NCBI GenBank assembly: GCA_050251945.1
Contig: JBFWLW010000006.1
Location: forward strand, 32,001-96,000
DNA length: 64,000 nucleotides
Reading direction: 5' to 3'
DNA from: Deferribacterales bacterium
GTDB taxonomy: Bacteria; Chrysiogenota; Deferribacteres; Deferribacterales; Geovibrionaceae
Part shown: positions 3,881 through 42,449 of the stretch, one piece after another
How the letters are laid out: every line of letters begins with the position of its first letter
Numbering within the stretch: the first letter of the stretch is position 1
Made by a program: the position numbers and the translations under genes
Notes under the pieces: model-generated
Seen by the model: only the letters and a program-made list of their open reading frames with translations
Databases searched by the model: none
Told to the model about the DNA's origin: nothing

Positions 3881-5215
3881 TCAGGAGTAAAGTTCGCGCT
3901 CGATGGTGGTGATAATAAGCTGAACTTCGCGGCTCTCTTTGTACTTATCAGCTATTGAATTGACCGAGTGCAGAACCGTAGAGTGATCTCTTCCGCCGAA
4001 CATTGAGCCGACTTCCTGCAATGAGAGGTTGAGCTTTTCCCTTAGAAGGTACATGGCAACCTGACGGGGCATGGAGATGCTTTTTGTGCGTTTTTTGGAC
4101 TTCATATCAGCCATTTTAACGTTGAAATACGACGAAACAGCCTCAATGATATTATCTGAAGTGACAACCCTGTCCTTTTTCACAAGGAATTTTTCAAGAG
4201 CCTGCGTGGCGAGGTCTATAGTTACTTTGCGCTTATGGAAGCTTGAGAACGCACTCAGGCGCACGAGAGCGCCGATAAGCTCTCTGATGTTCTCCGTAAC
4301 GAGGTTCTCCGCCATAAAAAACGCGACCTCCTGCGGCATGGGAAGCCCCATAAATTCAGCACGCTTGATAAGAATTGCGGTCTTCTCCTCAACACTGGGC
4401 GGCTGGATATCAGCTATCAGCCCCCATGAGAAGCGGCTTTTAAGTCTGTCTTCCATCTCCGGTATCTCTGCGGGGGTCTTATCGCTGGTGATAATTATCT
4501 GTTTCTGGTTATCGTAAAGAGCGTTGAAAGTGTTGAAAAACTCTTCCGTGCTTCGCTGTTTGCCGGAAAGGAACTGGACGTCATCGAAAAGAATAAGGTC
4601 AATATTGCGGTATTTATTCTGAAATTCGTCCATCTTTTTCATTCTGATGGCGTTTATCATCTCGTTGGTGAACGTTTCGCTGGTGCAGTAAAGCACTTTC
4701 ATCTTAGGGAATTTTTCAAGAATACGGTTGCCCACCGCCTGCATCATGTGGGTTTTTCCAAGCCCCACCCCGCCGTATATGAAAAGCGGGTTATACTGCA
4801 TGAACTGCCCTTCGGACACAGCCTGACACGCACTGTATGCAAATTCGTTTGAGCTTCCGGCAACGAAGTTTTCAAAGATATATTCTCTGTTGAGATTATT
4901 GCCGTTCTTTGGCTGCTGTATGATGGTTCCGGCGGGAACGCTGTGACCTTCCGTCTGTGCGGGGCGTTTTTCCGCGCCGACAGTAATGGAGACATCGGCC
5001 TCAACGGCAAGATTCTCCTTAAATACTTTCTTAATCTGAGGAAGATACTTATCTTCCGCCCATTTTTTATAAAATTTGTTTGGTGCGGTAAGTGTTATAA
5101 GGTCGCCGCGCAGCTCCGCCACAGCCATAGGCTCAAGCCAGACCTTGACCTCCTGCTCGGATATCTCTTTACGCAGGTATTTCAGCACTTCTTCCCAGAT
5201 TCCGGTTTCGTCCAT
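3881..5215 (-). CDS. dnaA: Chromosomal replication initiator DnaA
   Basis: YNPLFIYGGVGLGKTH Walker A, DDVQFL, RLKSRF, GGRDHSTVLHS domain IV. Confidence 0.98.
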   Translation of the reverse strand: MDETGIWEEVLKYLRKEISEQEVKVWLEPMAVAELRGDLITLTAPNKFYKKWAEDKYLPQIKKVFKENLAVEADVSITVGAEKRPAQTEGHSVPAGTIIQQPKNGNNLNREYIFENFVAGSSNEFAYSACQAVSEGQFMQYNPLFIYGGVGLGKTHMMQAVGNRILEKFPKMKVLYCTSETFTNEMINAIRMKKMDEFQNKYRNIDLILFDDVQFLSGKQRSTEEFFNTFNALYDNQKQIIITSDKTPAEIPEMEDRLKSRFSWGLIADIQPPSVEEKTAILIKRAEFMGLPMPQEVAFFMAENLVTENIRELIGALVRLSAFSSFHKRKVTIDLATQALEKFLVKKDRVVTSDNIIEAVSSYFNVKMADMKSKKRTKSISMPRQVAMYLLREKLNLSLQEVGSMFGGRDHSTVLHSVNSIADKYKESREVQLIITTIERELYS

Positions 5216-5302
5216 ACTGTCTTAATTATCCTGAAAAAATTGAATGAAAGAATATTATATCAGAACCTCACAAAAATGTATACTGTAACCGAAACAAATT
5301 CA

Positions 5303-27030: not shown

Positions 27031-27147
27031 TTATTTATTTGTTTTCTTCGGTTTGCAGAGTTTCTCTTTTTTGTTGGACTGCGCTCCGCATTTTGAACAT
27101 TCAAACTCTTTGTCTTTCTTCGGTTTTTCTCCGCATTTCTTGCTCAT
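27031..27147 (-). CDS. 38-aa Lys/Cys-rich small protein (not in ORF track)
   Basis: MSKKCGEKPKKDKEFECSKCGAQSNKKEKLCKPKKTNK; ATG overlaps ppk1 stop (ATGA). Confidence 0.7.
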   Translation of the reverse strand: MSKKCGEKPKKDKEFECSKCGAQSNKKEKLCKPKKTNK

Positions 27148-29171
27148 AGCTTCGCCTTCTGGGTGTAGAGTTTATGGTTGTTCTCTATAAGATAGTCCTG
27201 ATAGTTCAGTTTGTCTTTAGTTCCTTTCACTTTCACATATTCAGAGTCCTTCTGCATCCACACCTTCTGGTTGTCGCGGAGGTTCAGGTCAAGGATATTC
27301 AGCAGGAAGTTTCGACCCTCTTTCTTTGTTACCTCGAAGAAAAGCTCGACGCGCCTGTCCATGTTGCGCTCCATCCAGTCGGCAGTGCTGAAAAACACCC
27401 TCTTTTTTCCGCCCGCATGAAAATATATGATCCGCGGGTGTTCAAGAAATCTGCCCACGATACTGCGCACGCGGATATTCTCCGTCACGCCCTTAATACC
27501 GGCTTTGATTCCGCAGATACCCCTGACGATAAGCTCTATTTTAACTCCCGCACAGGAAGCCTCTATGAGCTTGTCTATCAGCTTCTTATCTATTACGGCG
27601 TTGACCTTCACTATCATCTTCGCCTCTTTGCCCGCTTTAGCAAAGGCGATCTCCTCGTCAATAAGCTCAAGCACCTTAGGCTTTATGTATTTCGGCGCGA
27701 GATAGAATCTGTTCCACGTGCCTATGTCGGTGTAGCCCATAAGGAAATTGAACATTGCGGCGCTGTCTTTGCCTATCTCTTCATCCGCCGTGATATAGTC
27801 GATATCAGTGTAAATACCAGCTGTAAACTCGTTGAAGTTGCCGGTGGACATGTGCGAATAACGCATCACCCGTCCGCTCTCTCTGCGGACTATCATGAGA
27901 TTTTTCGCGTGTATCTTAAGACCTGCTATGCCGTATGTAACTATGCAGCCCGCCTCTTCAAGCATATTCGCCCAATCGACGTTCCGTTCTTCGTCGAAAC
28001 GCGCCTTAAGTTCTATGACAACACTGACGTGTTTTCCGTTTTGCACCGCTCTGATAAGGCTTTCCAGAATAGTAGAGTTCTTGTTTGCCCTGTAAAGAGT
28101 CATCTTTATCGCCATAACGTCAGGATCTGCGGCGGCAGTCGCCACCATTCGGGAAACCAGACCGAAGTCATGAAACGGGCGATACATAATGATATCCTGC
28201 TTTTTTATCTGCTCAAAAATGTCCATGCTGCCGTCGATATATTCAGGCAGAATCGGCTTAAAAGGCGGATAGCAAAGGTCGGGGCGTTCCCCCGCTACAG
28301 AGAACAGGGACGTCATATCTATTATGTCGTCGATTATGTATACGTCGTTCTTTGAAAAGTGCAGGTGTGATTCCATATGATCCAATATCTCCTGCGGCAG
28401 GCGGCTGTCGGTCTCGACACGGCAGATGCCCCCCTTTTTACGGGATTTCAGGAAATTCTGAATTGAAAGGAGCAGGTCGTCTGATTCCTCCTCATCAAGC
28501 GTGAGGTCGGCGTTCCGTGTGACCCTCAGCAGATAGCTGTCAAGAACTTCATAGTCGGGGTAAACAATATTAAGGTATTTTGTAAGTATATCTTCCGTAA
28601 AAAGAAAATATATCTTATCCAGTTTAACGCGAAATATCCTGCGCAGGTTCTCCGGCAGGATAATTATGGAGTGGTGAACGACGCCGTCCTTTTTGATAAG
28701 CACATAAAGGCACAGGCGCAGGTTGTGTATGAACGGCATGGGGTTGTTTGAGGAGAGAGTCACCGGGGATATGACGGGGTATATCTCCTCGTTGAATATC
28801 GCTTCGGTGATATCGTCCAGATTAGCCGTCAGAGTGGGGGCTATCATGATGTTCTCTTTCTCAAGATCCTTTTTCAGTCCTGCGAATATCTCCTGACGCA
28901 GACCGGTCAGCTCGTGCGCCTTAGCGCTGATATGCTCAAGCTGTTCCTCCGGCGTGCTTCCGGATGCATCCAGCTTTGTATAGCCCGCTTCTATCTGGTC
29001 GCGCAGACCGCCCACGCGTATCATGAAGAACTCGTCGAGGTTGGATGAAAATATTGCCAGAAATTTCAGACGCTCAAGAAGCGGGACGGATGAATCCACC
29101 GCCTCCATCATTACCCGCCTGTTAAATTCCAGCCAGCTAAGTTCTCTGTTTATGTACGGACTGATACTCAT
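27144..29171 (-). CDS. ppk1: Polyphosphate kinase 1
   Basis: NRELSWLEFNRRV, NLDEFFM.RV, ELKARFDE, KIHAK, GRFLEH, ADWMERN. Confidence 0.97.
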   Translation of the reverse strand: MSISPYINRELSWLEFNRRVMMEAVDSSVPLLERLKFLAIFSSNLDEFFMIRVGGLRDQIEAGYTKLDASGSTPEEQLEHISAKAHELTGLRQEIFAGLKKDLEKENIMIAPTLTANLDDITEAIFNEEIYPVISPVTLSSNNPMPFIHNLRLCLYVLIKKDGVVHHSIIILPENLRRIFRVKLDKIYFLFTEDILTKYLNIVYPDYEVLDSYLLRVTRNADLTLDEEESDDLLLSIQNFLKSRKKGGICRVETDSRLPQEILDHMESHLHFSKNDVYIIDDIIDMTSLFSVAGERPDLCYPPFKPILPEYIDGSMDIFEQIKKQDIIMYRPFHDFGLVSRMVATAAADPDVMAIKMTLYRANKNSTILESLIRAVQNGKHVSVVIELKARFDEERNVDWANMLEEAGCIVTYGIAGLKIHAKNLMIVRRESGRVMRYSHMSTGNFNEFTAGIYTDIDYITADEEIGKDSAAMFNFLMGYTDIGTWNRFYLAPKYIKPKVLELIDEEIAFAKAGKEAKMIVKVNAVIDKKLIDKLIEASCAGVKIELIVRGICGIKAGIKGVTENIRVRSIVGRFLEHPRIIYFHAGGKKRVFFSTADWMERNMDRRVELFFEVTKKEGRNFLLNILDLNLRDNQKVWMQKDSEYVKVKGTKDKLNYQDYLIENNHKLYTQKAKL

Positions 29172-29261
29172 ATCAAACCGACCCCCTGTGTAACTATTGA
29201 CATCCGGAATGCGCCGCGCATCAGACCCGGTTGAGAGGCTGACGCGGCAGTTTCAAAAAAT

Positions 29262-30779
29262 TTATTCGTAAAGGATTCTTGCTTCAAGCTCTATAGGGAT
29301 ACCGAAAGTATCGGTGAATATTTTGCTTTTTTCGCTGAAAGCATGTTTTTCAAGGAATGCCATGCATTTACATTTCGCCTTTATAACAACTTTTCCGGTC
29401 TGTATGTCCACATCAAAATCCTGAACTATGTCCATGTGTGACGCATCCAGTGAATCGGCTATCCTCAGTATGCTTACCAGTTTCTTTATAATGAGCTGTT
29501 TCTCAACGGGAAAATAGTGATATTTCTGCTCAAACCACTTGTCCACGTCGCCGTTGTGCATCAGCACAAGGTACGAAACAAGCTTGACATGCTCTCGCGG
29601 AAGTCCCGGAATCTGCAGAGACTGTACAAGATAGTAAGAGTGCTGATTATGTTTCACCGAGTCGATGTAATAGCCCACATCGGAAAGAACCGCCGCCGCT
29701 TCAAGGATGAATTTCTCCATCCTGCCCAGAGAGTGCAGAGGTTTTAAGGCATCAAACAGCTTCATGGAGAACCTGACGGTGGTGTCGGCGTGCTGTCTGT
29801 CCATGTTGAACCGCTCGCCAAGCGCATATACGGTGTTGCGTACGCGGGTGAAAAATCCGCGGTCGCGAACCGTCTTCGTGTGGAAAAGACTCAGCATGTG
29901 AGGGAACGGCATCCTTGAAAACCGCACATGGTTAGTACCTATAAAATCCATCAGTTTCAGATATGTCACCAGTGTCGGAACAAGAACGCTCGCCTCGTCC
30001 TTCCTTATGTTCATAACGGTCTGTATCGTATCTCTGGGGAGCTGTTTAACGCGGTCGTAAAGCTCTTCCAGCTGCTTTCTGGAAAGCATGTTTTTTTTCG
30101 GCTGAAAGATGTTCAGAAGAACGTTCAGCGACGAACCTGCACTGACAAAATATTTAAGTTTGCATCCCGCAGGGAGTGCGCTTTTCATGGAATAGCACAT
30201 CTTTTCGACGTACTGTTCGTATGCCTTATACCTTATGCGGGCAGGGATATCACCGAAGATACGGCGAAGTCTCAGCGACCCGTACGGAAGCGCGCCGGAA
30301 TAGATATTCTGTTCGTCCTTAAGGATTGCCATGGCTATGTTTCCGCTGGATATGTTTGCCAGCAGAACACCCTCTTTCTCATAGTCGTCAAAGCCGTCTA
30401 TGTCGTTTTTGACACTCACAAATTTTATGTATATCTCGTCTGAGGGCTGGATGACCTCAAGCTCAATGCCTGTCTCCTGACGGATATGGTTGATGAAGAA
30501 CGCCTGATTGCCCGCCTCCCGCACACCGCTGGTGCAGACTGCCGCATAGTTCTTCTTTATGCCGTATTCATCCATCTTGGTCTTAAATTTTTTCAGTATG
30601 TCGGTGGAGGCGTACACGCTTTCAAGCGAGATATACCCCTTGGTAAAGGTGTCCCTGCCCAGCCTGAAAGGCTTTATCAGGTATTCGAGGGTACGCTCCT
30701 CTCCGTTAACGTATTCGCTTATGTGCATTCTGAAGGCGCTGGCGCCTATGTTTATGGCAGCAAAGATTCCGTTCTTCAT
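29262..30779 (-). CDS. Ppx/GppA family protein with degenerate catalytic motifs + HD-like C-terminal domain
   Basis: NIGASAFR, TSGVREA, NISSGNIA (instead of DIGGGSTE), LRIADSLDASH. Confidence 0.85.
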   Translation of the reverse strand: MKNGIFAAINIGASAFRMHISEYVNGEERTLEYLIKPFRLGRDTFTKGYISLESVYASTDILKKFKTKMDEYGIKKNYAAVCTSGVREAGNQAFFINHIRQETGIELEVIQPSDEIYIKFVSVKNDIDGFDDYEKEGVLLANISSGNIAMAILKDEQNIYSGALPYGSLRLRRIFGDIPARIRYKAYEQYVEKMCYSMKSALPAGCKLKYFVSAGSSLNVLLNIFQPKKNMLSRKQLEELYDRVKQLPRDTIQTVMNIRKDEASVLVPTLVTYLKLMDFIGTNHVRFSRMPFPHMLSLFHTKTVRDRGFFTRVRNTVYALGERFNMDRQHADTTVRFSMKLFDALKPLHSLGRMEKFILEAAAVLSDVGYYIDSVKHNQHSYYLVQSLQIPGLPREHVKLVSYLVLMHNGDVDKWFEQKYHYFPVEKQLIIKKLVSILRIADSLDASHMDIVQDFDVDIQTGKVVIKAKCKCMAFLEKHAFSEKSKIFTDTFGIPIELEARILYE

Positions 30780-32305
30780 ACCAGCCTTACGGGGAGTTTT
30801 AAAAGCTTAACAAGCATGTCCCGATTTCTTTCAAAGTCTTTTATCTCAAGGGTAATGTCCTTGTCGGATATGGGCTTGATGTCTATGGAAACATTTGTAA
30901 CAGTGATCTCAAGTCTGTCTATCAGTCCCTTGTGGGTTCTGTCCAGAGCGATGGCAAGCCTTAAAAGAGCCGCCAGTTTTTCAACGCGAAGCTGCATCGC
31001 CGGCAAAAGCGAGATGAACTCATCGTGTGCCGTCTTCGGCATACTTTTTCTGTGATATCTGGCTATGCTGGCTATCGCCTCGATCTCCTCATGGGTATAC
31101 CCCACAAGCTCGGAATGTTTTATCATATAATAAGAGTGCCTGTGATGTTTTGAATAGGCGATATGTTTACCTATGTCGCGCAGTAATGCCGCCGCTTCAA
31201 GAAGCGACCAGTCGCGTTCTATAAGCCCCATACGGTCTTTCAGCCCGTCAAAGAGCATTTTCGCCAGTTTCTCAACCTGAAAAGCGCCCGCTTCGTCAAA
31301 ATCGAACTTATTGCCTATCTCCACCAGTCTTGAATAGCGTACGCTGTCCATGCTGTTCTGGAACGGCAGTTCGATGCCCATTTTGTTTATGGTGTCTATG
31401 GTAAGCCCTGCACGCAGTCCGCCAGTCAGGGTGTAAAATCCGTCTATTCCGGTCTCTTCCAGTATCATATCCGTCTGAATCGCCGCGGAAAGTATGATAT
31501 CCGCACGTTTCTCTTCCATCCCCTCTATCTTTATGCGCTCTTCGTTGCTCTTCATCCTGATGTCGCTGATGAATTTTTTCAGAAACTTCCGCTCAACGTA
31601 TTTAACAAGGCTGTCGCGGAGGTTCTTGTCCTTATAGTGGCAGATGTAACCCACGTTGTTCATGGAGCCGCCGGTGCATATCACCATTTCAAGCCCCCTG
31701 CCCAGCTTCATCCTGTCGATAAATTCCGCGATATGCTCTTTCATGGCAAGTACCTGCGCGGACGTAGGAGGGTCCCCTTCCAGAAATTCGCGGGTGAGCC
31801 TGTTGCAGCCAAGAGGAAGGCTTTTTGCTTTTTCAACCTCGCCGTCTCTGACAACGGTATATTCGGCACTTCCGCCGCCTATGTCTGTTATCAGCGCGTA
31901 GCGGTCTTTCAGCTCAAAATTTGCGCTCGCCGCCAGATATGTCAGCCGCGCTTCCTCCTGTCCGCTGATGACCTCAACTTTTATTCCGCATTCCTGCTCT
32001 ATAATATTAAGTGTCTCGCCCAGATTGTCCGCTTCGCGGAACGCCGCAGTGGCAATGGCGCGTATCGTTTTGCACCCTTTGCTCTCGGCAAGACGCCTGA
32101 CATTATTAAGTGTGTTTACAAGTATCTCTATAGTCTCTTTGGGAAAATAGCCGAGGGTATATATGGTGTCGCCAAGACGTATCATCTCTTTGTAATCTTC
32201 AAGGACGCGGTAGCTTTTGTCCTTGACCTCGGAAATCTGCAGGCGGAGTGAATTGCTGCCTATGTCGGCAACCGCCACCCGAACGTTATCGTTTGATAAT
32301 GCCAT
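30776..32305 (-). CDS. ppx: Exopolyphosphatase Ppx/GppA
   Basis: DIGSNS, ATAAFREA.N, SGQEEA, DIGGGSAE. Confidence 0.9.
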   Translation of the reverse strand: MALSNDNVRVAVADIGSNSLRLQISEVKDKSYRVLEDYKEMIRLGDTIYTLGYFPKETIEILVNTLNNVRRLAESKGCKTIRAIATAAFREADNLGETLNIIEQECGIKVEVISGQEEARLTYLAASANFELKDRYALITDIGGGSAEYTVVRDGEVEKAKSLPLGCNRLTREFLEGDPPTSAQVLAMKEHIAEFIDRMKLGRGLEMVICTGGSMNNVGYICHYKDKNLRDSLVKYVERKFLKKFISDIRMKSNEERIKIEGMEEKRADIILSAAIQTDMILEETGIDGFYTLTGGLRAGLTIDTINKMGIELPFQNSMDSVRYSRLVEIGNKFDFDEAGAFQVEKLAKMLFDGLKDRMGLIERDWSLLEAAALLRDIGKHIAYSKHHRHSYYMIKHSELVGYTHEEIEAIASIARYHRKSMPKTAHDEFISLLPAMQLRVEKLAALLRLAIALDRTHKGLIDRLEITVTNVSIDIKPISDKDITLEIKDFERNRDMLVKLLKLPVRLV

Positions 32306-32319
32306 CAGTGCTCCTAAAT

Positions 32320-32400
32320 GAGACTGCTTAGGGCACATGCCCTAGCAGAGACTAATATGAGGTTTCGTTTTCGCGAGGGCTTTATGCCCGGAGCGATCTC
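32320..32400. repeat. REP-like inverted doublet, family A (diverged)
   Basis: GAGACTGCTTAG..CTAGCAGAGAC...GTTTTCGCGAG..CGGAGCGATCTC. Confidence 0.8.
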
Positions 32401-32419
32401 ACATTTTATTACAAGTATA

Positions 32420-33766
32420 TCAAATTCCGAGGGATTTTTTAACCCGTTTCCTGCCTTTGCGGAATATTCTGATAAGCTCCACCGCCGTTTCCCTTTCCTG
32501 CGCCTTTTTCAGCGTAAGCACTGCGAGGATATATCCGCAGGCTGTCAGCACCTTTGCGTCTTTTTCCTCATTCAGCCGTCCCTGCATGTGTGCGCACTGT
32601 ACAGAAAGGTCGTTGTATCTGCCCAGACTGTCCTGCAAAGCCCTCAGGCGCGTAAGAACGTCCGCAGTTTTCTCCTCTTTAATAAAGAGAGCGAAAAACT
32701 CTATGCAGTAACGCAGCTTTTTGAAAGCGATCCTCACCGAGTGTATCTGCTCGTCCGGTGTGTCGGCACCTACCCCGTCGGTGATGCTCTCCGCCAGACC
32801 GAATATCTTGGCAAGCGCTTTGTTTGCCGCTTTTTTCGTATTCACAAATCCTTTGCGCCCTATATGAGCGCGGGAGGATATCAGCTTTTCCCAGCCAGCA
32901 AGGTCTATGTTATACTCTTCGGATGTCAGGAAATTTTTCAGTTTTTCATAGCTTTCGTCACGTTCGCCTTTGAAATGTTCCCGCAGAGGCGCAAGCGCAT
33001 CCTTCATCTCGTCAGGAAGCAGTTCGTCATAACATTCAAGCTCTTCAAGATATACGTCCATATCTCTTGCCTTGCCGGTGTAGCCGCCGAGAGTGCGGAA
33101 AAAATTCTTATAGCGCGCTTCCTCCGCATCTTCGTAAACACCTTTCAGCATAGACATTGCAGACCTTGTTCTACGCACCGAAACACGGAAATCGTGCAGG
33201 AACTCCGCATCGTAACCGTTTATTATGCCGTCGGTGTTCAGCCTCATTATCTTTATCAGCTCCCCGTACACCGTTTCCATGGAATCGTGGAGCACAGCGG
33301 AGTCGTCCGCACGGCACTGAACACGCGTGGTGTAGCGCATCATGGGGTCGCCTTTGCGTTTCACATATGCCAAAAGCCCGCCGCCGAAACTTTTCAGTTC
33401 ATCCATGCAGTAGTGGAATGTAAATTCATCCTGCATCTCCGGTGTGTAAATAATGTATCCGTCGGGAAGCGTATAGAGGATGCCTTTGATTTCGTTTGCC
33501 GTGAATGAATGTACGATGATGCCGACAGACATCTTTTCAAAAAGGTGGCGTTTTTCCGATCGCACAGAACAGTCGCCGTTTTTAACATCAGCACTGCCGT
33601 TAAAGAACGCGGTATCTTTCCCGTCGCTGAAAAGCAGGCATCCGGCGCGGACGAGCAGCCACTCAAACGTGTCGTATATACTTATCGCAAGGTCTTTATT
33701 TTTTCTGTATCTGAGCCTGAACTTCCTGTCTGATAAAGGTTTAACGTCCGAAATATAATATGGCAT
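32420..33766 (-). CDS. CHAD domain protein (polyphosphate-binding)
   Basis: EFLHDFRVSVRRTRS, RDMDV, HSVRIAFKKLRY, LQDSLG..ND. Confidence 0.92.
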   Translation of the reverse strand: MPYYISDVKPLSDRKFRLRYRKNKDLAISIYDTFEWLLVRAGCLLFSDGKDTAFFNGSADVKNGDCSVRSEKRHLFEKMSVGIIVHSFTANEIKGILYTLPDGYIIYTPEMQDEFTFHYCMDELKSFGGGLLAYVKRKGDPMMRYTTRVQCRADDSAVLHDSMETVYGELIKIMRLNTDGIINGYDAEFLHDFRVSVRRTRSAMSMLKGVYEDAEEARYKNFFRTLGGYTGKARDMDVYLEELECYDELLPDEMKDALAPLREHFKGERDESYEKLKNFLTSEEYNIDLAGWEKLISSRAHIGRKGFVNTKKAANKALAKIFGLAESITDGVGADTPDEQIHSVRIAFKKLRYCIEFFALFIKEEKTADVLTRLRALQDSLGRYNDLSVQCAHMQGRLNEEKDAKVLTACGYILAVLTLKKAQERETAVELIRIFRKGRKRVKKSLGI

Positions 33767-33768
33767 GA

Positions 33769-34224
33769 TTAAAGCAGAGCCTTCTGCTGTATAAGGTTCA
33801 CAAGGACGCTGTCGTCTATATGAGCTATGGAGCCTTTTTTAAGCTGAAGCCGCAATGCCTTTCCGCCCGTGATGAACGATATGACTTCCGAAAGATCCGG
33901 TTCGTGACCGACAACCGCCAGAGGCGATGCGTGACGCCAGTCGGAGATCGTCTCCAGATAATCCTTTATCTTTGCCCCGGGATTCAGCCGCTCTCTGATG
34001 TCATATTTGACGCCGCATATTTCTGATATTATGGATGCCGTTTCAACTGAGCGCACAGCGGCGGATGTCAGAACTGCCGCGGGTTTATCATATAAGTTAA
34101 AGAAACGGGTAAAGGCGCGTTTTGCCCTGACCTTTCCTTTTTCCGTCAGCGGACGGTCGAGGTCTCTGCCCTTGAACACCTCTCTGTCCTCTGCGTGACT
34201 GTGGCGAATCAGATAAACTATCAT
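33769..34224 (-). CDS. sixA: SixA-like histidine phosphatase
   Basis: LIRHS, DRPLT..G, TSAAVRS.ETA, VGHEP, KKG. Confidence 0.88.
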   Translation of the reverse strand: MIVYLIRHSHAEDREVFKGRDLDRPLTEKGKVRAKRAFTRFFNLYDKPAAVLTSAAVRSVETASIISEICGVKYDIRERLNPGAKIKDYLETISDWRHASPLAVVGHEPDLSEVISFITGGKALRLQLKKGSIAHIDDSVLVNLIQQKALL

Positions 34225-34631: not shown

Positions 34632-35246
34632 TTACCCGATGGGCAGAACTGTTTTTTTGTAAACTTCGTTGAGAACCTGAGCCGCACCTGCATACATAGC
34701 AGAGAGACCGCAGAGAACGCCTTCAAATCCGGCGAATTTTTTGATGGATGCGCTTTCAAACATATCGCCTATGGCAAGAAGCATGAACAGTATCACAAGC
34801 AGGAAGAAAACAACCTGAAGAGCTTTGTTCAGCTTGAAAGTACCTATGAAAAGAATGAGAGAGAAGAAGCCCCACAGAAACAGATAAGCAGACATTGCCA
34901 CTGTGTCGGGTTTCTCAAATCCCATTTTAGGAAGGACTATTATACCAACGAGGGTAAGCCAGAAAAGTCCGTATGATGTAAAGGCTAATGTGCCGAATGT
35001 ATTTTTCTTTTTCCACTCCATCATGCCCACGATGATCTGTCCGAGACCGCCGTAGAAGATACCCATTGCAAGGATTCCGCTATCCATCGCAAAAAGACCG
35101 ATATTGTGCAGGTTAAGAAGAATGGTTGTCAGACCGAAACCCATAAGCCCGAGAGGAGCAGGATTTGCGGTTGTGTCTGCGAGAACTGTTTCCGCAATCT
35201 GTCCGATAGCCGCGTCTGTATTCACAGCTTCAACTTTGTTGCTCAT
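34632..35246 (-). CDS. satP: Acetate/succinate uptake channel SatP (GPR1/FUN34/YaaH)
   Basis: ANPAPLGLMGFG signature, YGGLGQ, NTFGTLAFTSYGLFW. Confidence 0.95.
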   Translation of the reverse strand: MSNKVEAVNTDAAIGQIAETVLADTTANPAPLGLMGFGLTTILLNLHNIGLFAMDSGILAMGIFYGGLGQIIVGMMEWKKKNTFGTLAFTSYGLFWLTLVGIIVLPKMGFEKPDTVAMSAYLFLWGFFSLILFIGTFKLNKALQVVFFLLVILFMLLAIGDMFESASIKKFAGFEGVLCGLSAMYAGAAQVLNEVYKKTVLPIG

Positions 35247-36170
35247 ATTCTACCTCCAAAGTGATAATGACTAATCATCAATAAACTTGCGTATTTTCCA
35301 GTTTATCAACCTTTGCTGATTTCTATATACAAACGGTTTTATGACAATGCAATAACTATTTATTCCGAGTGAACAAGGTTAATTAATGCTATATAGTTTA
35401 AGAACATAGTTCTATATTTACAGCATACGCTCTATTAATATTTAAATAAGGCTTTTACTGTATTGTTCAGCATACATTCATCTTTTTATGCACCGGAAAT
35501 GTCCCATTAAAATTACATTATGTTCTATTTTAATTTTTTTATGTCGGATGAAAAATTTTTGCTTACCGCTGACAAATTTTGTCATATGCAACCCTTATTC
35601 TGCGTATTTTACGCCTATAATGAATCTGTAAACACTAATGGTTAATCGAATCACCTTTAAAAGCCATTTGACAGGTTTTCTGTACAGCAGCGCAATAAAG
35701 TTGAGAGAATATATAGAGAATAGAACTATTAATAAAAAAATACAAAACTTTGTTTCTTTTACATTAATTTTGACAAAGCACGAGGCTGTTCTTATTCACA
35801 GTAAATGCTATATTTACAGCTATTATTGACCTACTTTAATGTTTATAACAGATTACTATTTATAACCATAGAAAAACAACAAAAGGTAAGCGGCCTTATT
35901 TTCCATGCTGATAATACACCAAAATGTTTACCAGTTATTACCGCCGTCAGAACGTATGGCAGTAATGATTAGTCAAAATACATGTTAATGATCGTATTAA
36001 CACAGATAAAACAAATTCAGGCATTTATTAAATCAGACTACTATCAGTCTCTTACATGCTTCCAACAGGGATTTTAAATTTAATATTTTTTTTGAAATTA
36101 AATTATCCTGCCATTCCAACCATTTCCGAATTTAAACAAATAAAGATTAGTTTGCGAAACATTATTTATG

Positions 36171-36199
36171 TTGACACCAAAATTAATTTACGAAATAAT
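36171..36199 (+). promoter_or_regulatory. sigma70-type promoter of the Phe-leader transcript
   Basis: TTGACA-17 nt-AATAAT; predicted +1 near 36206. Confidence 0.7.
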
Positions 36200-36205
36200 C
36201 TATCC

Positions 36206-36280
36206 ATGAATATGAACAGAACTTTCGCTGAAACCTCTTTTTTCTTTTTTGGTTTCTTTTGGTGCTCAGCCTTTGAGTAG
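36206..36280 (+). CDS. Phe-rich attenuation leader peptide (24 aa)
   Basis: MNMNRTFAETSFFFFGFFWCSAFE*: 8 Phe, 1 Trp; followed by antiterminator/terminator. Confidence 0.82.
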   Translation: MNMNRTFAETSFFFFGFFWCSAFE

Positions 36281-36345
36281 ACCGTGGAGTTCTGCACGAT
36301 AAGCTTGCAAAGGGCTGTGAGAACGAACTCACAGCCCTTTTTTTT
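36265..36345 (+). terminator. Attenuator: antiterminator (36265-36275 with 36308-36321) vs intrinsic terminator (36309-36345)
   Basis: AAAGGGCTGTGAG-AACGAA-CTCACAGCCCTTT(TTTTT), T8 run at 36338-36345; CTCAGCCTTTG complementary to the 5' arm. Confidence 0.85.
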
Positions 36346-36388
36346 GGCTTTAAATCAGTTCGGAAACATATATCGGAGGTATTTTAAG

Positions 36389-37501
36389 ATGAAGAAAACG
36401 GTAATTACGGTTCTTATGCTTCTTGTCTCGGTATGCGCCTACGCCGAGATAAAAATCGGTGCTCTTCTGGCGCTCTCAGGTCCTATCTCAAACCTTGGAA
36501 AGCCCGGTCAGGAGATCATCGACGGTGTCATCGCCGAGGCAAACAAAACGAAAATGCTGGGTGATAAGATAACTGTGGTAACATACGACACCCAGTCGCT
36601 CCCTGACAGGGCGCAGACATATGCAAAGAAGCTGATCGCCAAGGACAGGGTTGACGTTATAGTCGGTCCCAACGGAACCGGCGAGGCGCTCTCTGTTTTA
36701 GGCGAAGCGATGTCCTCCAAAACGCCGATGATGGCATTCGCCGGAGGAACATCAGTTGTAATGCCTGTCCGCCCCTACGTTTTCAAATCCCCCCAGACAA
36801 CCTCAACAGCAATCGAAAAAGCTTTCAACTATCTCAAGAAAAAAGGAATAACAAAAATTGCCGTCGCCGCTGACGCAACGGGTTTCGGTCAGGACGGTCT
36901 CGACCAGATAAACAAGTATTCCAAAGGTTTTACTATTACAGGCATTGAAAAGTTCAACGCAACCGACAACGACGTGACAACGCAGATGTCAAAACTGCTT
37001 GCCGCAAAACCGCAGGCGGTTGTGATATGGACAGTGGGCAGAGCAGGCGCGATAGCCGCAAAAAGCCTGCGCGCGCTTGATCCCAACATACTTATGGTTC
37101 AATCCCACGGCATAGCCGACAACTCTTACCTGAAACTTGCGGGAGCCGCCGCAGAAAACACCGTCATGCCCTCTGTTAAACTGACAGTGGCATCAAGCCT
37201 CCCCGCAAACGACCCCCAGAAAAAAACAATCGACGCATTCATCAAAAAGTACGGTAAACTCATAGACGAAACTTCCGTCCACGCGAGCTATGCTTACGAC
37301 GGTATCAACCTTGTCCTCGCCGCTCTGAAAAAAGCTAAGGCAGAGAAGATACCTCTTCAGCAGGCGATGGAGAAGATAACCAATTTCGTCGGTGTAACAG
37401 GCGTTTACAACATGAGCAAAACAGACCACTGCGGTCTTGACCTCTCTTCAATGGTCATCGTTAAGGTGAAAGACGGCAAATTCGTTCTGGAAGAGATGTG
37501 A
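36389..37501 (+). CDS. ABC substrate-binding protein, LivK/PBP1 class, aromatic-acid-binding (CouP/RPA1789-like)
   Basis: KIGALLALSGP, YDTQS, DVIVGP, GVYNMSKTDHCGLD; signal peptide; GGAGGT RBS. Confidence 0.82.
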   Translation: MKKTVITVLMLLVSVCAYAEIKIGALLALSGPISNLGKPGQEIIDGVIAEANKTKMLGDKITVVTYDTQSLPDRAQTYAKKLIAKDRVDVIVGPNGTGEALSVLGEAMSSKTPMMAFAGGTSVVMPVRPYVFKSPQTTSTAIEKAFNYLKKKGITKIAVAADATGFGQDGLDQINKYSKGFTITGIEKFNATDNDVTTQMSKLLAAKPQAVVIWTVGRAGAIAAKSLRALDPNILMVQSHGIADNSYLKLAGAAAENTVMPSVKLTVASSLPANDPQKKTIDAFIKKYGKLIDETSVHASYAYDGINLVLAALKKAKAEKIPLQQAMEKITNFVGVTGVYNMSKTDHCGLDLSSMVIVKVKDGKFVLEEM

Positions 37502-37549
37502 TTTAACTGGAATAACATGACTTAACATATTATAAAAGGTTACGGATAT

Positions 37550-37625
37550 GAGACTGCTTCGTCCTTTCAGTCCTCGCAGAGACAAACACCAGTCTTCGCG
37601 AGGAGCACCAGCGACGCGGCGATCT
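37550..37625. repeat. REP-like inverted doublet, family A
   Basis: GAGACTGCTTCG..CTCGCAGAGAC-GTCTTCGCGAG..CGCGGCGATCT. Confidence 0.85.
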
Positions 37626-37659
37626 AAATTCTGCCGTAACCTTTATTCCGGAGGAACAT

Positions 37660-38772
37660 ATGAAAAAAGTTCTCATAGCCGCATCTGTGCTTCTTCTAAG
37701 CATATCTGCATATGCAGAGGTGAAGATAGGTGCGCTGCTGGCTCTTACAGGTCCTATATCCAACATCGGCAAGCCTTCACAGGAGATACTGGAGGGCGTG
37801 ATAGCCGATGCCAACAAAGCGAACTTCATGGGCGAACCCATCACCCTTGCGGCATACGACACACAGGGGATGCCCGATAAAACAATGATGTTTGCCAAGA
37901 AATTAATAAACAAAGACAAGGTTGACGTTATAGTCGGTCCAACATCCACAGGCGAGGCAATGTCCGTTATCGGCACCATCATGGATGCCCGGACACCCAC
38001 AATGGGATTCGTCGGCGGCACGCCCCCTGTAGAACCTGTACGCCAGTACATGTTCAAGTCTCCCCAGAAAACATCCACAGCCGTTGAAAAAACTTTCGGC
38101 TACCTGAAAAAGAAGGGATGGACAAAGATAGGCGTTGTTGTGGACGCAACAGGTTTCGGTCAGGACGGACTTGACCAGATAAACAAATACGCCGCCGGAT
38201 TCACAATCACAGGCGTTGAAAAGTTCAACATGACAGACACCGACATGACGACCCAGATGAAAAAAATACTGGATACCAAACCTCAGGCGATTGTGGTGTG
38301 GACAGTGGGCAAAGCGGGTGCAGTAGCCGCGAAGAGCCTGCGCGCGCTGGATAATGACATCCCGCTGATCCAGTCACACGGCATAGCCGACTTCTCATAT
38401 ACAAAACTTGCAGGCGCTGCGGCGGAAGGTTCCATAATGCCGGCACTTAAGATAGTCGTCGCAAAACAGCTTCCCGCGAACGACCCCCAGAAAAAGGCAA
38501 TAGACCTTTTCAACAAACGCTACGGCAAACTGATAAATGAAACATCCGTACACGCAATTTACGCATACGACGGCATAAACCTGATGCTGAACGCTATGAA
38601 ACGTGCAAAAAACGAAAAGATAAGCATCGTTCAGGCGCTTGAGACAACAAAGAATTTTGCCGGAGCAACAGGCGTTTATAACATAACCAAAACAGACCAC
38701 TGCGGACTGGATATGTCCTCTCTGGTCATGGTCAGGGTTAAGAACGGTCAGTTTGTTCTTGAAGATATGTAA
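37660..38772 (+). CDS. ABC substrate-binding protein, tandem paralogue of 36389-37501
   Basis: Colinear similarity end to end (FKSPQ, DATGFGQDGLDQINKY, QSHGIAD, DHCGLD). Confidence 0.85.
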   Translation: MKKVLIAASVLLLSISAYAEVKIGALLALTGPISNIGKPSQEILEGVIADANKANFMGEPITLAAYDTQGMPDKTMMFAKKLINKDKVDVIVGPTSTGEAMSVIGTIMDARTPTMGFVGGTPPVEPVRQYMFKSPQKTSTAVEKTFGYLKKKGWTKIGVVVDATGFGQDGLDQINKYAAGFTITGVEKFNMTDTDMTTQMKKILDTKPQAIVVWTVGKAGAVAAKSLRALDNDIPLIQSHGIADFSYTKLAGAAAEGSIMPALKIVVAKQLPANDPQKKAIDLFNKRYGKLINETSVHAIYAYDGINLMLNAMKRAKNEKISIVQALETTKNFAGATGVYNITKTDHCGLDMSSLVMVRVKNGQFVLEDM

Positions 38773-38777
38773 AACTC

Positions 38778-38807
38778 AACGAGGGAGGCATTCGCCTCCC
38801 TTGTTTT
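38778..38807 (+). terminator. Intrinsic terminator-like hairpin after second SBP
   Basis: AACGAGGGAGGC-ATTC-GCCTCCCTTGTTTT. Confidence 0.6.
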
Positions 38808-38810
38808 AAG

Positions 38811-38900
38811 TCCCACTTTGTAAAAGGGGGATTTAGGGGGATTTTCTTTCCGGCTTTTCAATAACAAATCCACCCCGCCCCTCCTTTGTTAAAGGAGGGA
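38811..38900. repeat. Palindromic intergenic repeat family B, copy 3
   Basis: TCCCACTTTGTAAAAGGGGGATTTAGGGGGATTT...AAATCCACCCCGCCCCTCCTTTGTTAAAGGAGGG. Confidence 0.85.
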
Positions 38901-38978
38901 GAAAATCAGCTTTTTTCTTTAAATTCTTATTTCATTAGTGTACTATCTCATTCTGTCATTAATTTTACGGTGATTCAG

Positions 38979-40736
38979 ATGGTAAACGGTTTTTTTCTTG
39001 GCAACGAACTGATTGCTCTTGCCGCTGTTGATTCGGGAGTCAAAAGCGCATACGCCTATCCCGGAACCCCTTCAAGCGAGATACTCTCCGCTTTTTCAAA
39101 ATTTGCGCCCGAGCGCTATGCCCAGTGGTCGCTGAACGAAAAGATAGCTCTTGAGCTTGCCGCGGGCGAAGCGATATCCGGTTCATACACACTCTGCTGT
39201 ATGAAGATGGTGGGACTGAACGTAGCCGCCGACCCGCTTTTCAGCGTGGCATATACCGGCGTCGCAGGCGCGATGGTGCTTGTTTCGGCGGACGACCCCG
39301 GACCCTACAGCAGCCAGACGGAACAGGACAGCCGCATGTATGCCGTCAGTGCGAAGGTGCCGGTTCTCGACCCCTGCAACCCTCAGGATGCGTACCGCCT
39401 GACAAGGCTCGCATATCAGATATCCGAAAAATACCGTCTTCCTGTAATGGTCAGACCCGTTATGCGTGTCTGCCACTCACGCCAGAATTTTATGGCTGGC
39501 GACGTTTCAGAGCAGCAATCCCGTGAAACGGTTCTGCATGGAACGTTTCAGAAAGATACTCCGCGCTGGGCGGCGACACCGAAGTTCCGCCGCATCCTCC
39601 ACGAAAAGCTCAACAAAAACCTTGATCTGCTCGCCGCAGAGATGGCGCCGAAAATACCGGAAAAAAGATACGACATGGCAGTTGTCGCCTCAGGCTATGC
39701 ATACGCCATGGCGAAAGACGTTATAAATGAGATGAACCTTCCGTTCGACATGATAAAGGTCGACATGCCCTTCCCTCTGGACAAACAGTTTGTCATCGAG
39801 GCGGAGATGGTATACGACCGCATCGTCGTTCTTGAAGAGACCTTCCCCGTTATCGAGCATAACTTCACAATAAAAACCGAGGGCAGGCTCACCGGACTTG
39901 TCCCCTCCGAAGGGGAGCTTACTGCGGACATCATCGCCGACATCCTGTTCAAAACGGCAGGAATGACCCGCGAAGTTGCAAATACCGGAATAAGCACATC
40001 CGAAACACCTGTTCAGCTTAAGCCGCGCCTCTGCGCGGGATGCGGGCACAGACCCGCTTTCTATGCCATGAAGCTTGCCGCTCCGAAGGGCATCTTCCCC
40101 GGCGATATAGGCTGTTACACCCTTGGCGTTAATCTGAACGCTGTCGATACATGCATCTGCATGGGCGCTTCCATCACTTTCGCGGAAGCCATGAAGCGCT
40201 CCAACCCCGACAAACCCGTGATATGCACAATAGGCGATTCAACTTTCTTCCACACCGGCGTCACGGGACTTACAAACGCCGTGGTCAACAGCGCGCCCAT
40301 AGTCGTGGCGGTGCTGGATAATGAAACCACAGCAATGACAGGCTTTCAGCCCGTTCCCCACAAAACTGGCAAACTCACTATTGAGCTGGCTTGTCAGGGC
40401 GCAGGCGTCAGATACATAGTAAAAGTTGACCCTTATAACCTGAAAAAAGGCGTGGAGGCTCTCAAGCAGGCGCTTGCATACGCGCACACTGACAATTCCC
40501 CTGCGGTGGTGATATTCACCAAAGAATGTGTTACCAAAACGCGGTACAAGAATAAAAAAATTGTTGAAATAAGCGATGCCTGCACCGACTGCTCCATATG
40601 CTATGAGAAGTTCGAGTGTCCGGCAATTTACAGAGACAAAGCGAAGCGCATGGCAAAGATAGACGAAACCGCGTGCGTGGGGTGTATGGTCTGCATTCAG
40701 GTATGCCCGCAGAAGGCCATAGGGGTGAAGAAATGA
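38979..40736 (+). CDS. iorA: Indolepyruvate (aryl-pyruvate):ferredoxin oxidoreductase alpha subunit
   Basis: YPGTPSSEI, NEKIALE, K.VGLNVAADP, LCAGCGHR, GDIGCY, GDSTFFH..LDN (TPP), two C-terminal 4Fe-4S motifs. Confidence 0.93.
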   Translation: MVNGFFLGNELIALAAVDSGVKSAYAYPGTPSSEILSAFSKFAPERYAQWSLNEKIALELAAGEAISGSYTLCCMKMVGLNVAADPLFSVAYTGVAGAMVLVSADDPGPYSSQTEQDSRMYAVSAKVPVLDPCNPQDAYRLTRLAYQISEKYRLPVMVRPVMRVCHSRQNFMAGDVSEQQSRETVLHGTFQKDTPRWAATPKFRRILHEKLNKNLDLLAAEMAPKIPEKRYDMAVVASGYAYAMAKDVINEMNLPFDMIKVDMPFPLDKQFVIEAEMVYDRIVVLEETFPVIEHNFTIKTEGRLTGLVPSEGELTADIIADILFKTAGMTREVANTGISTSETPVQLKPRLCAGCGHRPAFYAMKLAAPKGIFPGDIGCYTLGVNLNAVDTCICMGASITFAEAMKRSNPDKPVICTIGDSTFFHTGVTGLTNAVVNSAPIVVAVLDNETTAMTGFQPVPHKTGKLTIELACQGAGVRYIVKVDPYNLKKGVEALKQALAYAHTDNSPAVVIFTKECVTKTRYKNKKIVEISDACTDCSICYEKFECPAIYRDKAKRMAKIDETACVGCMVCIQVCPQKAIGVKK

Positions 40737-41242
40737 TTCAGGGAATAATTTGCGGAAAAGGCGGACAGGGAGTCATAACCCTTAACGCCATGATAGGCAC
40801 TCTGGCTGCGAACATGGAAATACCCGCAGTATCGGCGGAAACCCACGGCATGGCTATGCGCGGCGGTTCCGTTGCAACGTACATCAAAATAGGCGAATGT
40901 CTCAGCGCCGCTGTTGCGGAAGGCTCTGCGGATTTCATCATCAGCCTCACCAAAGACGAAGCGCTCAGAAATATCAGCTTTATAAAAAAAGACGGGGTCA
41001 TCATCGTTGACACGGATGAACCCTTTGACATAAGCGGAGTGAAAATAATCTCTCTGCCGGCTTCCGACATAGCGGAGGAACAGTTCGGCGGCAGGATATA
41101 CGGCGGGCAGGTGCTTCTTGGCATATTTCTCGGCTGTTTTGACGGTATTGACACCGGAAAAGCACTTGAAATACTGAAAACTGCACCGAAAATAAGCATA
41201 CACGCCATAGAATACGGAGTCAGATATGCACAAACTCACTGA
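40733..41242 (+). CDS. iorB: Indolepyruvate oxidoreductase beta subunit
   Basis: GKGGQGV, ETHGMAMRGGSV; ATGA overlap with iorA. Confidence 0.9.
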   Translation: MIQGIICGKGGQGVITLNAMIGTLAANMEIPAVSAETHGMAMRGGSVATYIKIGECLSAAVAEGSADFIISLTKDEALRNISFIKKDGVIIVDTDEPFDISGVKIISLPASDIAEEQFGGRIYGGQVLLGIFLGCFDGIDTGKALEILKTAPKISIHAIEYGVRYAQTH

Positions 41243-42449
41243 CATACAGCTTTTAAAGCTGGGTACGACACTGCACCACATAAAAAAGGCAAACCCTTTC
41301 TATTTTCAAAGATACGAAACGGATAGAATCACCTCTTACGAAGACCTCACAAAAATGCCCTTTATAACAAAAGATATACTCCGTCAGGGATACCCCTTTG
41401 CATATGCGTGTGCAGACACAAAAAGCTGTGTGCGGATGCATATGTCAAGCGGCACCACAGGCAAACCCATCATAAACCCCATGACCGAAGGGGACGTCAA
41501 CCAGTGGGGCGAGATAATGGCGCGCTGTTACACCACGGCAGGTGTAACCGGCGAGGACACAGTTCAGATCACCCCGTCGTTCGGACTTTTTAACGGCGGT
41601 TTCGGTTTCCACTACGGCGCAGAGAGGCTGAAAAGCTTCATAATCCCCATGGGTGCAGGACGTTCACTGCTCCAGCTCCAGTTCATAAAAGACCTTGAAA
41701 CTACGTGCCTCTGCGCAATCGCTTCCTATCCTCTGAGGCTTATTGAAGTTGCCAAACAGGAAGGCTTTAGCTTTAGAGAGACGAAACTACGCGTGGGCAT
41801 CTTCGGTGCTGAAACGTGGACCGACGGCATACGCAGGCGTATCGAAAAAGAGATGGGTATCGAGACGTTCGACATCATAGGCATGACAGAGACAGGCGGC
41901 GTGGGGCTTGGCATAGACTGCAAAGACCACAGCGGAATACACGTCTGGGACGACCACTACATTGTCGAGATAGTCGATCCGGAAACAGGCGAGCCACTGC
42001 CCGACGGGGTGGAAGGCGAAATGGTGGTGACAACGCTCACCCGCGAAGGTCTGCCGCTGATACGCTACCGCACCCGCGACATCACAAAGGTTATAAGCCG
42101 CGAACCCTGTAAATGCGGACTTCATACGCTCAAGATAGCCAGACTGAAAGGCAGAACAGACGATATGCTCAAGGTGAAAGGCGTTAACTTCTACCCTGCA
42201 CAGATAGAATCCATCCTGATGGAGTTCACCGAAATAGGCGAAGAATACCGCATCATCCTTGACAAGAAGAAGGGTAAAGGGGACGTGACCCTTGCCGTTG
42301 AAACAGATACAATCACCGACGATGCAAAGGACAGACTTGACACGAAGCTTTACGATTTCCTCGGTTTCCGCGTGGATGTGCAGTATCTGAAACCGGGTAC
42401 TCTGGAGCGTTCCGCAGGAAAAGCCATCAGGGTTGTTGATAACAGATAG
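41226..42449 (+). CDS. paaK: Phenylacetate--CoA ligase family
   Basis: HMSSGTTGKP, GLFNGGFGFHYGAE, GAETW, GMTE, PLIRYRTRD, GRTDDM. Confidence 0.9.
   Translation: MHKLTDIQLLKLGTTLHHIKKANPFYFQRYETDRITSYEDLTKMPFITKDILRQGYPFAYACADTKSCVRMHMSSGTTGKPIINPMTEGDVNQWGEIMARCYTTAGVTGEDTVQITPSFGLFNGGFGFHYGAERLKSFIIPMGAGRSLLQLQFIKDLETTCLCAIASYPLRLIEVAKQEGFSFRETKLRVGIFGAETWTDGIRRRIEKEMGIETFDIIGMTETGGVGLGIDCKDHSGIHVWDDHYIVEIVDPETGEPLPDGVEGEMVVTTLTREGLPLIRYRTRDITKVISREPCKCGLHTLKIARLKGRTDDMLKVKGVNFYPAQIESILMEFTEIGEEYRIILDKKKGKGDVTLAVETDTITDDAKDRLDTKLYDFLGFRVDVQYLKPGTLERSAGKAIRVVDNR

Follow-up and report, generated by a model that had tools for sequence, protein, structure and literature searches.

The genes iorAB and paaK, which encode an indolepyruvate:ferredoxin oxidoreductase and a phenylacetate-CoA ligase, are usually taken as signs of aromatic breakdown. 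In a 64,000-nt stretch of DNA from a Deferribacterales bacterium of the genus Seleniivibrio (the window; GenBank assembly GCA_050251945.1, contig JBFWLW010000006.1, positions 32,001 to 96,000 of the forward strand), they follow a pair of genes for substrate-binding proteins (SBPs), and upstream of this pair lies a short open reading frame (ORF) rich in Phe codons. Hence the question is whether the cluster degrades aryl acids or, vice versa, builds Phe from them, and which of its genes respond to the Phe signal. The answer that we favour, with moderate confidence, is that the module salvages phenylacetate into Phe and that its uptake part is switched on by Phe shortage. The switch is firmly tied to the uptake genes only, and the module is probably anabolic. 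A starvation-type switch on the uptake partners, in a genome where no breakdown route was found, provides independent evidence that such bacterial clusters can be biosynthetic.

All five genes are on the plus strand. SBP1 (36389-37501) and its tandem paralogue SBP2 (37660-38772; 68% identity to SBP1) are Peripla_BP_6 proteins, SBP1 being assigned to the aromatic-acid (B-III / CouP-IadK2-RPB4630) group of periplasmic binding proteins; no permease gene is adjacent. The pair is followed by iorA (38979-40736; POR_N, TPP and Fer4 domains), a divergent second copy of the gene for the alpha subunit of a putative arylpyruvate (indolepyruvate):ferredoxin oxidoreductase, by iorB (40733-41242; POR domain, beta subunit of 169 aa), which overlaps iorA by 4 nt, and by paaK (41226-42449; AMP-binding domain), which overlaps iorB by 17 nt and encodes a putative AMP-forming aryl-acetate-CoA ligase of the PaaK type; the gene 3' of paaK has the convergent orientation. 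An earlier account made from the DNA letters alone (the sequence-only reading) had described two CouP-like SBPs followed by overlapping iorA-iorB-paaK on one strand, and the ORF coordinates and the Pfam/NCBIfam families bear this out. The order SBP1-SBP2-iorA-iorB-paaK is conserved in all genomes of the genus set (n = 7, the window's own genome, G000, included).

The Phe signal is located at 36171-36348, just outside the region 36389-42449 in which the sequence-only reading, invoking induction by Phe shortage, had placed the module. It starts with a sigma-70-type promoter (TTGACA-17-AATAAT, 36171-36199, plus strand) that matches the consensus at 11 of 12 positions, TTGACA and ATAAT being invariant throughout the genus set, and its predicted transcription start is at or beside the ATG of the leader peptide ORF (36206-36280, plus strand). 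This ORF comprises 24 codons, of which eight are Phe (a run of four, then two) and one is Trp, with no Tyr. Its ATG is situated 6 nt past the -10 box here and 6-7 nt past it in the seven genomes, which leaves no space for a Shine-Dalgarno site; thus, the ORF is probably leaderless, and the sequence suggests a leaderless mini-gene. Downstream there is an intrinsic terminator with a 13-bp stem and a U run (36309-36348, plus strand; folding z -4.8), whose 5' arm is predicted to pair alternatively with antiterminator segments at 36263-36325 (plus strand), as obtained by folding with a masked ribosome footprint, the contrast between states being modest.

The leader and the terminator are retained in all seven genomes, including two in which SBP1 is only 70% identical, and the leader always has 6-8 Phe codons, one Trp codon and no Tyr codon. 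Hence a conserved short ORF rich in regulatory codons lies between a promoter and an intrinsic terminator, as in an attenuator. Across the seven genomes, 95.6% of the cells of the terminator stem are paired, four pairs have G-U-compatible changes and one has a two-sided change; covariation is not significant by itself (26 of 500 shuffles, with seven related sequences). Among the short ATG ORFs that the genome contains (n = 30,241), only three have at least six Phe codons within nine, and two of these three ORFs precede a terminator and an aromatic gene. No Rfam family, Phe_leader included, matched at the gathering score within the window.

As the measure of the switch we used the energy needed to free the 5' arm of the terminator, folding the leader with a ribosome footprint masked. 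The pairing probability of the arm failed to separate the ribosome states and was uninformative, since weak local hairpins pair the arm too. The arm-freeing energy peaks at 8-10.5 kcal/mol when the Phe run has just begun to enter the A site, compared with 5-8.4 kcal/mol for a ribosome at the stop codon and, without a ribosome, 3.5-5.3 kcal/mol in five of the seven genomes and 7.7 kcal/mol in the other two (G004 and G005). Thus, the predicted antitermination by a Phe stall has the right direction in all seven genomes, clearly in five and weakly in two, and its contrast to the ribosome at the stop codon is small. A stall at the Trp codon is predicted to be approximately equivalent to the state without a ribosome in all seven genomes; Trp sensing by the leader was therefore rejected, and the extension to indoleacetate and Trp that the sequence-only reading had considered finds no support in the leader. 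The modelled folding fits classical attenuation in direction, by a small margin, with sensing of Phe and not of Trp being predicted, and we infer ribosome-stalling attenuation at the SBP1 leader.

Similar leaders precede biosynthetic genes elsewhere in the same genome. Ahead of the trpE operon, three Trp codons stand side by side in a leader ORF that a strong terminator follows (G000:C1:457184-457273, minus strand; locus L186), and a stand-alone second DAHP synthase gene has an unannotated Phe/Tyr leader with a terminator (G000:C4:133324-133404, minus strand), kept in all seven genomes (L185, L201-L207). Thus, the organism places such leaders on aromatic supply genes. The same genome scan picked up no such leader at the pheA operon of G000. 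Behind the terminator of the trpE leader there is another hairpin with its own U run.

In the genome, which is 99.97% complete, no route for the breakdown of phenylacetyl-CoA was found. For phenylacetate catabolism, the sequence-only reading had noted the absence of paa and pad genes from the window. This holds in the whole genome for PaaA (no match); for PadB alone it is not secured, as PadB is not separable among the 18 molybdopterin enzymes of the genome. PadB belongs to the DMSO-reductase family, and the absence of PF02738 matches from the genome bears on enzymes of the xanthine-dehydrogenase type, not on PadB. The genome encodes one HGD-D protein, which stands alone, and class I benzoyl-CoA reductase needs two subunits of this type; the single AFOR_N protein (482 aa) is a short AOR-like one with a partial match. 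All five POR domains of the genome are assignable (two IorB, pyruvate- and 2-oxoglutarate-type enzymes), and none of them is a spare 2-oxoacid oxidoreductase for PadEFGHI. No ADP-forming acyl-CoA synthetase was found in the genome beyond SucC.

Genes for synthesis, on the other hand, are present: a PDT-containing pheA is followed by genes for a HisC-type aminotransferase and a DAHP synthase and by ORFs read from sequence as tyrA and aroA, so that a search for pheA and aminotransferases, which the sequence-only reading had proposed, finds both. The genome also has a second set of iorAB, paaK and liv genes and, given this set and the de novo route, the cluster in the window would be an accessory salvage module. 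A ligase, IorAB, uptake proteins and an aminotransferase are thus all encoded, with no ring-degrading continuation found, PadB alone not being excludable. The reading that fits best is an anabolic direction, given the conserved Phe attenuator, the biosynthetic leader controls in the same genome, the lack of a detected catabolic route and the AMP-forming ligase beside IorAB.

For the binding proteins, both the closest fold and the closest sequence matches fall within the B-III aromatic-acid group. A structure model of SBP1 (pLDDT 96.3) best matches 4DQD, a complex with phenylpyruvate (Z 45.8, root-mean-square deviation 2.0, 341 residues aligned), followed by CouP entries (Z 43.8-44.5), whereas Leu/Val binders score at most 39.9; the label CouP-like of the sequence-only reading is hence correct as a class. 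The top sequence match is 7YLT from the Variovorax iad paper, identified by residue numbering as IadK2, a binder of indole-3-acetate that does not bind phenylacetate (PMC10374108; here and below, statements taken from cited papers rest on excerpts of them). In CouP, the carboxylate ligands are Arg197, Ser222 and Thr102 (PMC3610893). According to sequence alignment only, the hydroxyl positions Thr102/Ser222 are kept in our proteins as invariant Thr77/Thr195, while the Arg aligns with Ala or Met. To judge from sequence and model, the ligand class of SBP1 and SBP2 is an aromatic acid, and the loss of the Arg weakens any closer assignment.

The permease is likely provided in trans. A paaK-ACT-livH-livM-livG cluster with a second paaK (G000:C9:70326-76811, L184) lacks an SBP gene, while its relatives in four other genomes of the order have the arrangement paaK-ACT-SBP-SBP-livHM, with LivH 60-61% identical to the C9 copy. 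As the relatives keep SBPs in place, the SBPs of the window most likely dock on the LivHMGF-type permease encoded on C9 between two other paaK genes, as far as gene arrangement tells. A third SBP, 34% identical, stands alone (G000:C2:306091-307218, L187).

The enzymes have the expected architecture. IorA and IorB show the two-subunit composition (POR_N, TPP and ferredoxin domains in alpha, POR in beta, with YPGTP, TPP and FeS motifs); in IorA, which scores 579.6 bits with TIGR03336 (cut-off 650.9), the YPGTPS, TPP and Cys motifs are intact, and IorB exceeds the cut-off of PF01558 and reaches 89.6 bits with TIGR03334 (cut-off 205.8). By these scores we file IorAB of the window as a divergent IOR-like paralogue. 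The housekeeping iorAB is situated on C1, with an alpha subunit above the cut-off (690.4 bits), and one such copy is found in 38 of 41 genomes. PaaK has intact P-loop and adenylation motifs; its closest solved relatives are 4R1L (E 7e-105), 2Y27 (1e-87) and 2Y4O, and it scores 358.4 bits with TIGR02155 (cut-off 646.3), the two C9 copies being likewise below (552.7 and 618.5). At a position that holds Ala/Ile in PaaK1/PaaK2 the PaaK of the window has Phe; we take this position to set the pocket size, in which case larger rings would be disfavoured.

The route would then run as follows. Under Phe shortage, stalling of ribosomes on the leader would keep the terminator from forming, and SBP1-SBP2 would be made; an aryl acid would enter via the LivHMGF-type permease. 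PaaK would activate phenylacetate to phenylacetyl-CoA, converting ATP to AMP, IorAB, working reductively, would carboxylate phenylacetyl-CoA with CO2 and reduced ferredoxin to phenylpyruvate, and a general aminotransferase would convert phenylpyruvate to Phe.

Several observations weigh against this reading, and the first of them concern the reach of the signal. The sequence-only reading had cautioned that a hairpin and a repeat separate SBP2 from iorA, and that iorAB-paaK may have its own promoter; this caveat matters. The terminator-like hairpin (38778-38805; -22.4 kcal/mol, z -6.6, 0 of 200 shuffles) is significant, and it is followed by a dispersed palindromic repeat (38805-38905; 39 BLAST hits in the genome, itself included), the whole element 38778-38905, to which no strand is assigned, not being conserved in sequence across the genus. 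In four of the seven genomes (G000, G002, G003, G006) the sequence before iorA holds a hairpin that ends in a U-rich tail, and the other three have repeat palindromes only. A weak promoter-like site, in the window TTTAAA-17-TACTAT (38918-38946, plus strand; 32 nt upstream of iorA, a consensus match only), is found in all seven genomes 32-35 nt before the iorA ATG, with 8-9 of 12 consensus positions. Different genomes carry different repeats in this spacer, yet its last ~60 bases are conserved. Given the conserved promoter-like site and the hairpin, we did not adopt the single-transcript reading: the enzymes may lie beyond the reach of the Phe signal, and it is probably the binding proteins that the attenuator chiefly controls. 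By the layout of the spacer, iorAB-paaK probably relies for most of its transcription on a weak promoter of its own, and read-through from the attenuated promoter would be partial at best. Hence, of the earlier argument for an anabolic direction from Phe-shortage induction, the conserved attenuator upstream of the SBPs remains, while a Phe response of the enzymes would probably be only partial. Between SBP1 and SBP2 there is also a conserved hairpin, possibly a partial terminator (37536-37643, plus strand), into whose loop a REP-like repeat (37545-37615; 128 BLAST hits in the genome) is inserted here.

The other adverse points concern the strength of the switch, the identity of the proteins and the need for salvage. 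In G004 and G005 the switch is weak (9-9.7 vs 7.7 kcal/mol), and the contrast between a stall and a ribosome at the stop codon is just 1-4 kcal/mol. IorA, IorB and PaaK are all under the equivalog cut-offs, and the carboxylate-binding Arg of CouP (R197) and IadK2 (R199) is lost in both SBP1 and SBP2. Orthologous iorAB-paaK genes occur in seven genomes of other genera with neither an adjacent SBP nor a leader, and in this PaaK subfamily a leader precedes only one of the 24 metagenome operons for which 450 nt or more of upstream DNA are available. De novo synthesis is present, so salvage is dispensable, and four hot-dog thioesterases encoded in the genome could release the aryl acid. Finally, homologues are reported to work oxidatively in Bacteroides (BT0430, PMC10746243) and Desulfococcus (IorA3B3, PMC5109826).

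The most probable of the alternatives, though we regard it as unlikely, is that what the attenuator switches is the import of phenylpyruvate or of Phe itself, leaving at most one transamination, and that iorAB-paaK is a separately transcribed neighbour to which the Phe signal is irrelevant. It agrees with the phenylpyruvate complex as the top fold match, with the loss of the carboxylate Arg and an Asp in place of the pocket residue Phe168 of IadK2, with the promoter-like site and the terminator-like hairpins before iorA, and with the SBP and iorAB-paaK orthologues being unlinked in the genus g7. However, amino-acid binders score lower in the fold search (Z at most 39.9 vs 44-46), this SBP group recurs beside paaK/ior, and the linkage of SBPs and enzymes is retained in all seven genomes although the spacer has been repeatedly rewritten.

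If, instead of carboxylating phenylacetyl-CoA, IorAB worked oxidatively, phenylpyruvate would be converted to phenylacetyl-CoA and reduced ferredoxin in an overflow or fermentative branch, and a thioesterase would free the aryl acid, as in Bacteroides. The reaction of IOR is reversible, and the thioesterases are encoded. In B. thetaiotaomicron, less aryl-acetate is produced once BT0430 has been deleted (PMC10746243), and it is a ligase of this species, 4R1L, that is the closest solved match of our PaaK. On the other hand, synthesis of the CoA ester by an AMP-forming ligase costs ATP and goes against this direction, the head of the cluster carries a starvation-type leader, and the genome shows neither a downstream degradation route nor an ADP-forming synthetase other than SucC, which makes the oxidative branch quite improbable.

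Equally improbable is that the divergent enzymes serve some other acid (indole-3-acetate to Trp, 4-hydroxyphenylacetate to Tyr, or a non-aromatic one), with the C1 iorAB and C9 paaK copies handling phenylacetate: the indole-3-acetate-specific IadK2 as the top SBP sequence match, the three sub-cut-off enzymes beside a C1 IorA that passes, and a metagenome locus with the same PaaK pocket motif and a Trp-type leader (L149, see below) speak for it, but the leader has no Tyr codon in any of the seven genomes, its Trp codon has no predicted effect, and the Phe in place of Ala/Ile would, if the assumed role of this position holds, disfavour larger rings.

Salvage of phenylacetate into Phe, the reading we prefer, has precedents, and both the route and the switch type are already known; the leader is the new evidence. 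Neither the chemistry nor the mode of regulation is new, so that it is mainly annotation and physiology that benefit. The leaders would also place Phe and Trp attenuation of the classical kind in Deferribacterota, with leader genes that may themselves be leaderless. In its architecture, the leader resembles E. coli pheL-pheA and pheM-pheST, which we take to share the Phe-rich short ORF, the competing hairpins, predicted for our leader, and the intrinsic terminator with a U run; it differs in having no Rfam match, in the ATG at the predicted transcription start, in targeting a pair of uptake genes and in its host phylum. Methanococcus maripaludis makes aromatic amino acids from aryl acids via Ior (MMP0713-0714; PMC4162585, PMC3462420), and labelling indicated formation of Phe from phenylacetate in rumen bacteria (PMC7356843). 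As in M. maripaludis, IorAB would act reductively on aryl-acetyl-CoA beside a complete de novo pathway, but here we infer the direction rather than take it from genetics; in addition, the present system is bacterial, has ABC-type binding proteins for uptake and a ribosome-read Phe attenuator upstream. The SBPs are similar in fold to RPB4630 (4DQD/3SG0), CouP/RPA1789 and IadK2 (7YLT) (Z 42-46) and form a tandem pair like IadK2/IadK3, whereas the identity is 25-30%, the carboxylate Arg is replaced by Ala or Met, and the permease is not adjacent. The enzymes are of the same families as BT0430-0429 and the 4R1L ligase of B. thetaiotaomicron and IorA3B3 of D. multivorans; the bam ring-reduction genes of the latter were not found here, and the enzymes of both organisms are reported, in the excerpts used, to be oxidative. 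Within the openly available literature (subscription papers and supplements being outside the scope), we found neither attenuator control of ior/paaK nor leader peptides in Deferribacter.

Beyond the genus, close SBP orthologues (at least 53% identity) are found only in the four genomes of the genus g7, where this iorAB-paaK type is in each case present at another locus, and named SBP proteins at this identity come from Deferribacter. This type of PaaK is present in 15 of 68 genomes of the phylum, and ligases 60-67% identical to it occur outside the phylum in Spirochaetota, Desulfurobacterium, Thermodesulfatator and Hippea. Desulfurobacterium and Thermodesulfatator are chemolithoautotrophs, which would fit assimilation. 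Among the best 80 of 341 metagenome loci, whose neighbourhoods were considered, ior genes are present in 48, an SBP match in six (one only 22% identical) and liv permeases in six. At five loci (L124, L143, L160, L161, L162) the same PaaK type directly follows a class I/II aminotransferase gene, with DAHP synthase nearby in two.

No leader was found at 23 other SBP loci outside the genus, several with short upstream DNA; the eight of them with 500 nt upstream have no leader with a terminator. Attenuation is otherwise rare in this PaaK subfamily. The single metagenome operon with a leader, L149, has a Trp-type leader and a strong terminator (5085-5265 of its contig) before closely packed SBP-iorA-iorB-paaK. 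Its ligase falls outside the Deferribacterota clade, and thus L149 represents a separate wiring of the same module; the Trp-type leader suggests salvage of an indole acid there. Other aromatic-rich ORFs in the metagenome loci were set aside as chance, not being located before the operon. After its terminator L149 has a short tandem repeat. More broadly, we put forward, tentatively and at less than even odds, that ior-paaK-liv clusters of anaerobic bacteria, to which annotation usually assigns aromatic catabolism, serve for the most part to salvage amino acids with fixation of CO2, as leader attenuators would show, that the leaderless Phe mini-gene of Seleniivibrio switches the whole module, and that lineages are wired to Phe, Tyr or Trp.

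As to the surroundings, a gene for a SatP/YaaH-type acetate uptake transporter (34632-35246, minus strand) is divergent from the module, with an AT-rich gap of ~900 nt (35247-36170) between them, and this synteny is seen in all seven genomes. Farther away, at 27144-34224 on the minus strand, there are genes whose translations we take to resemble polyphosphate kinase, two Ppx/GppA-type phosphatases, a CHAD-domain protein and a SixA-like phosphatase.

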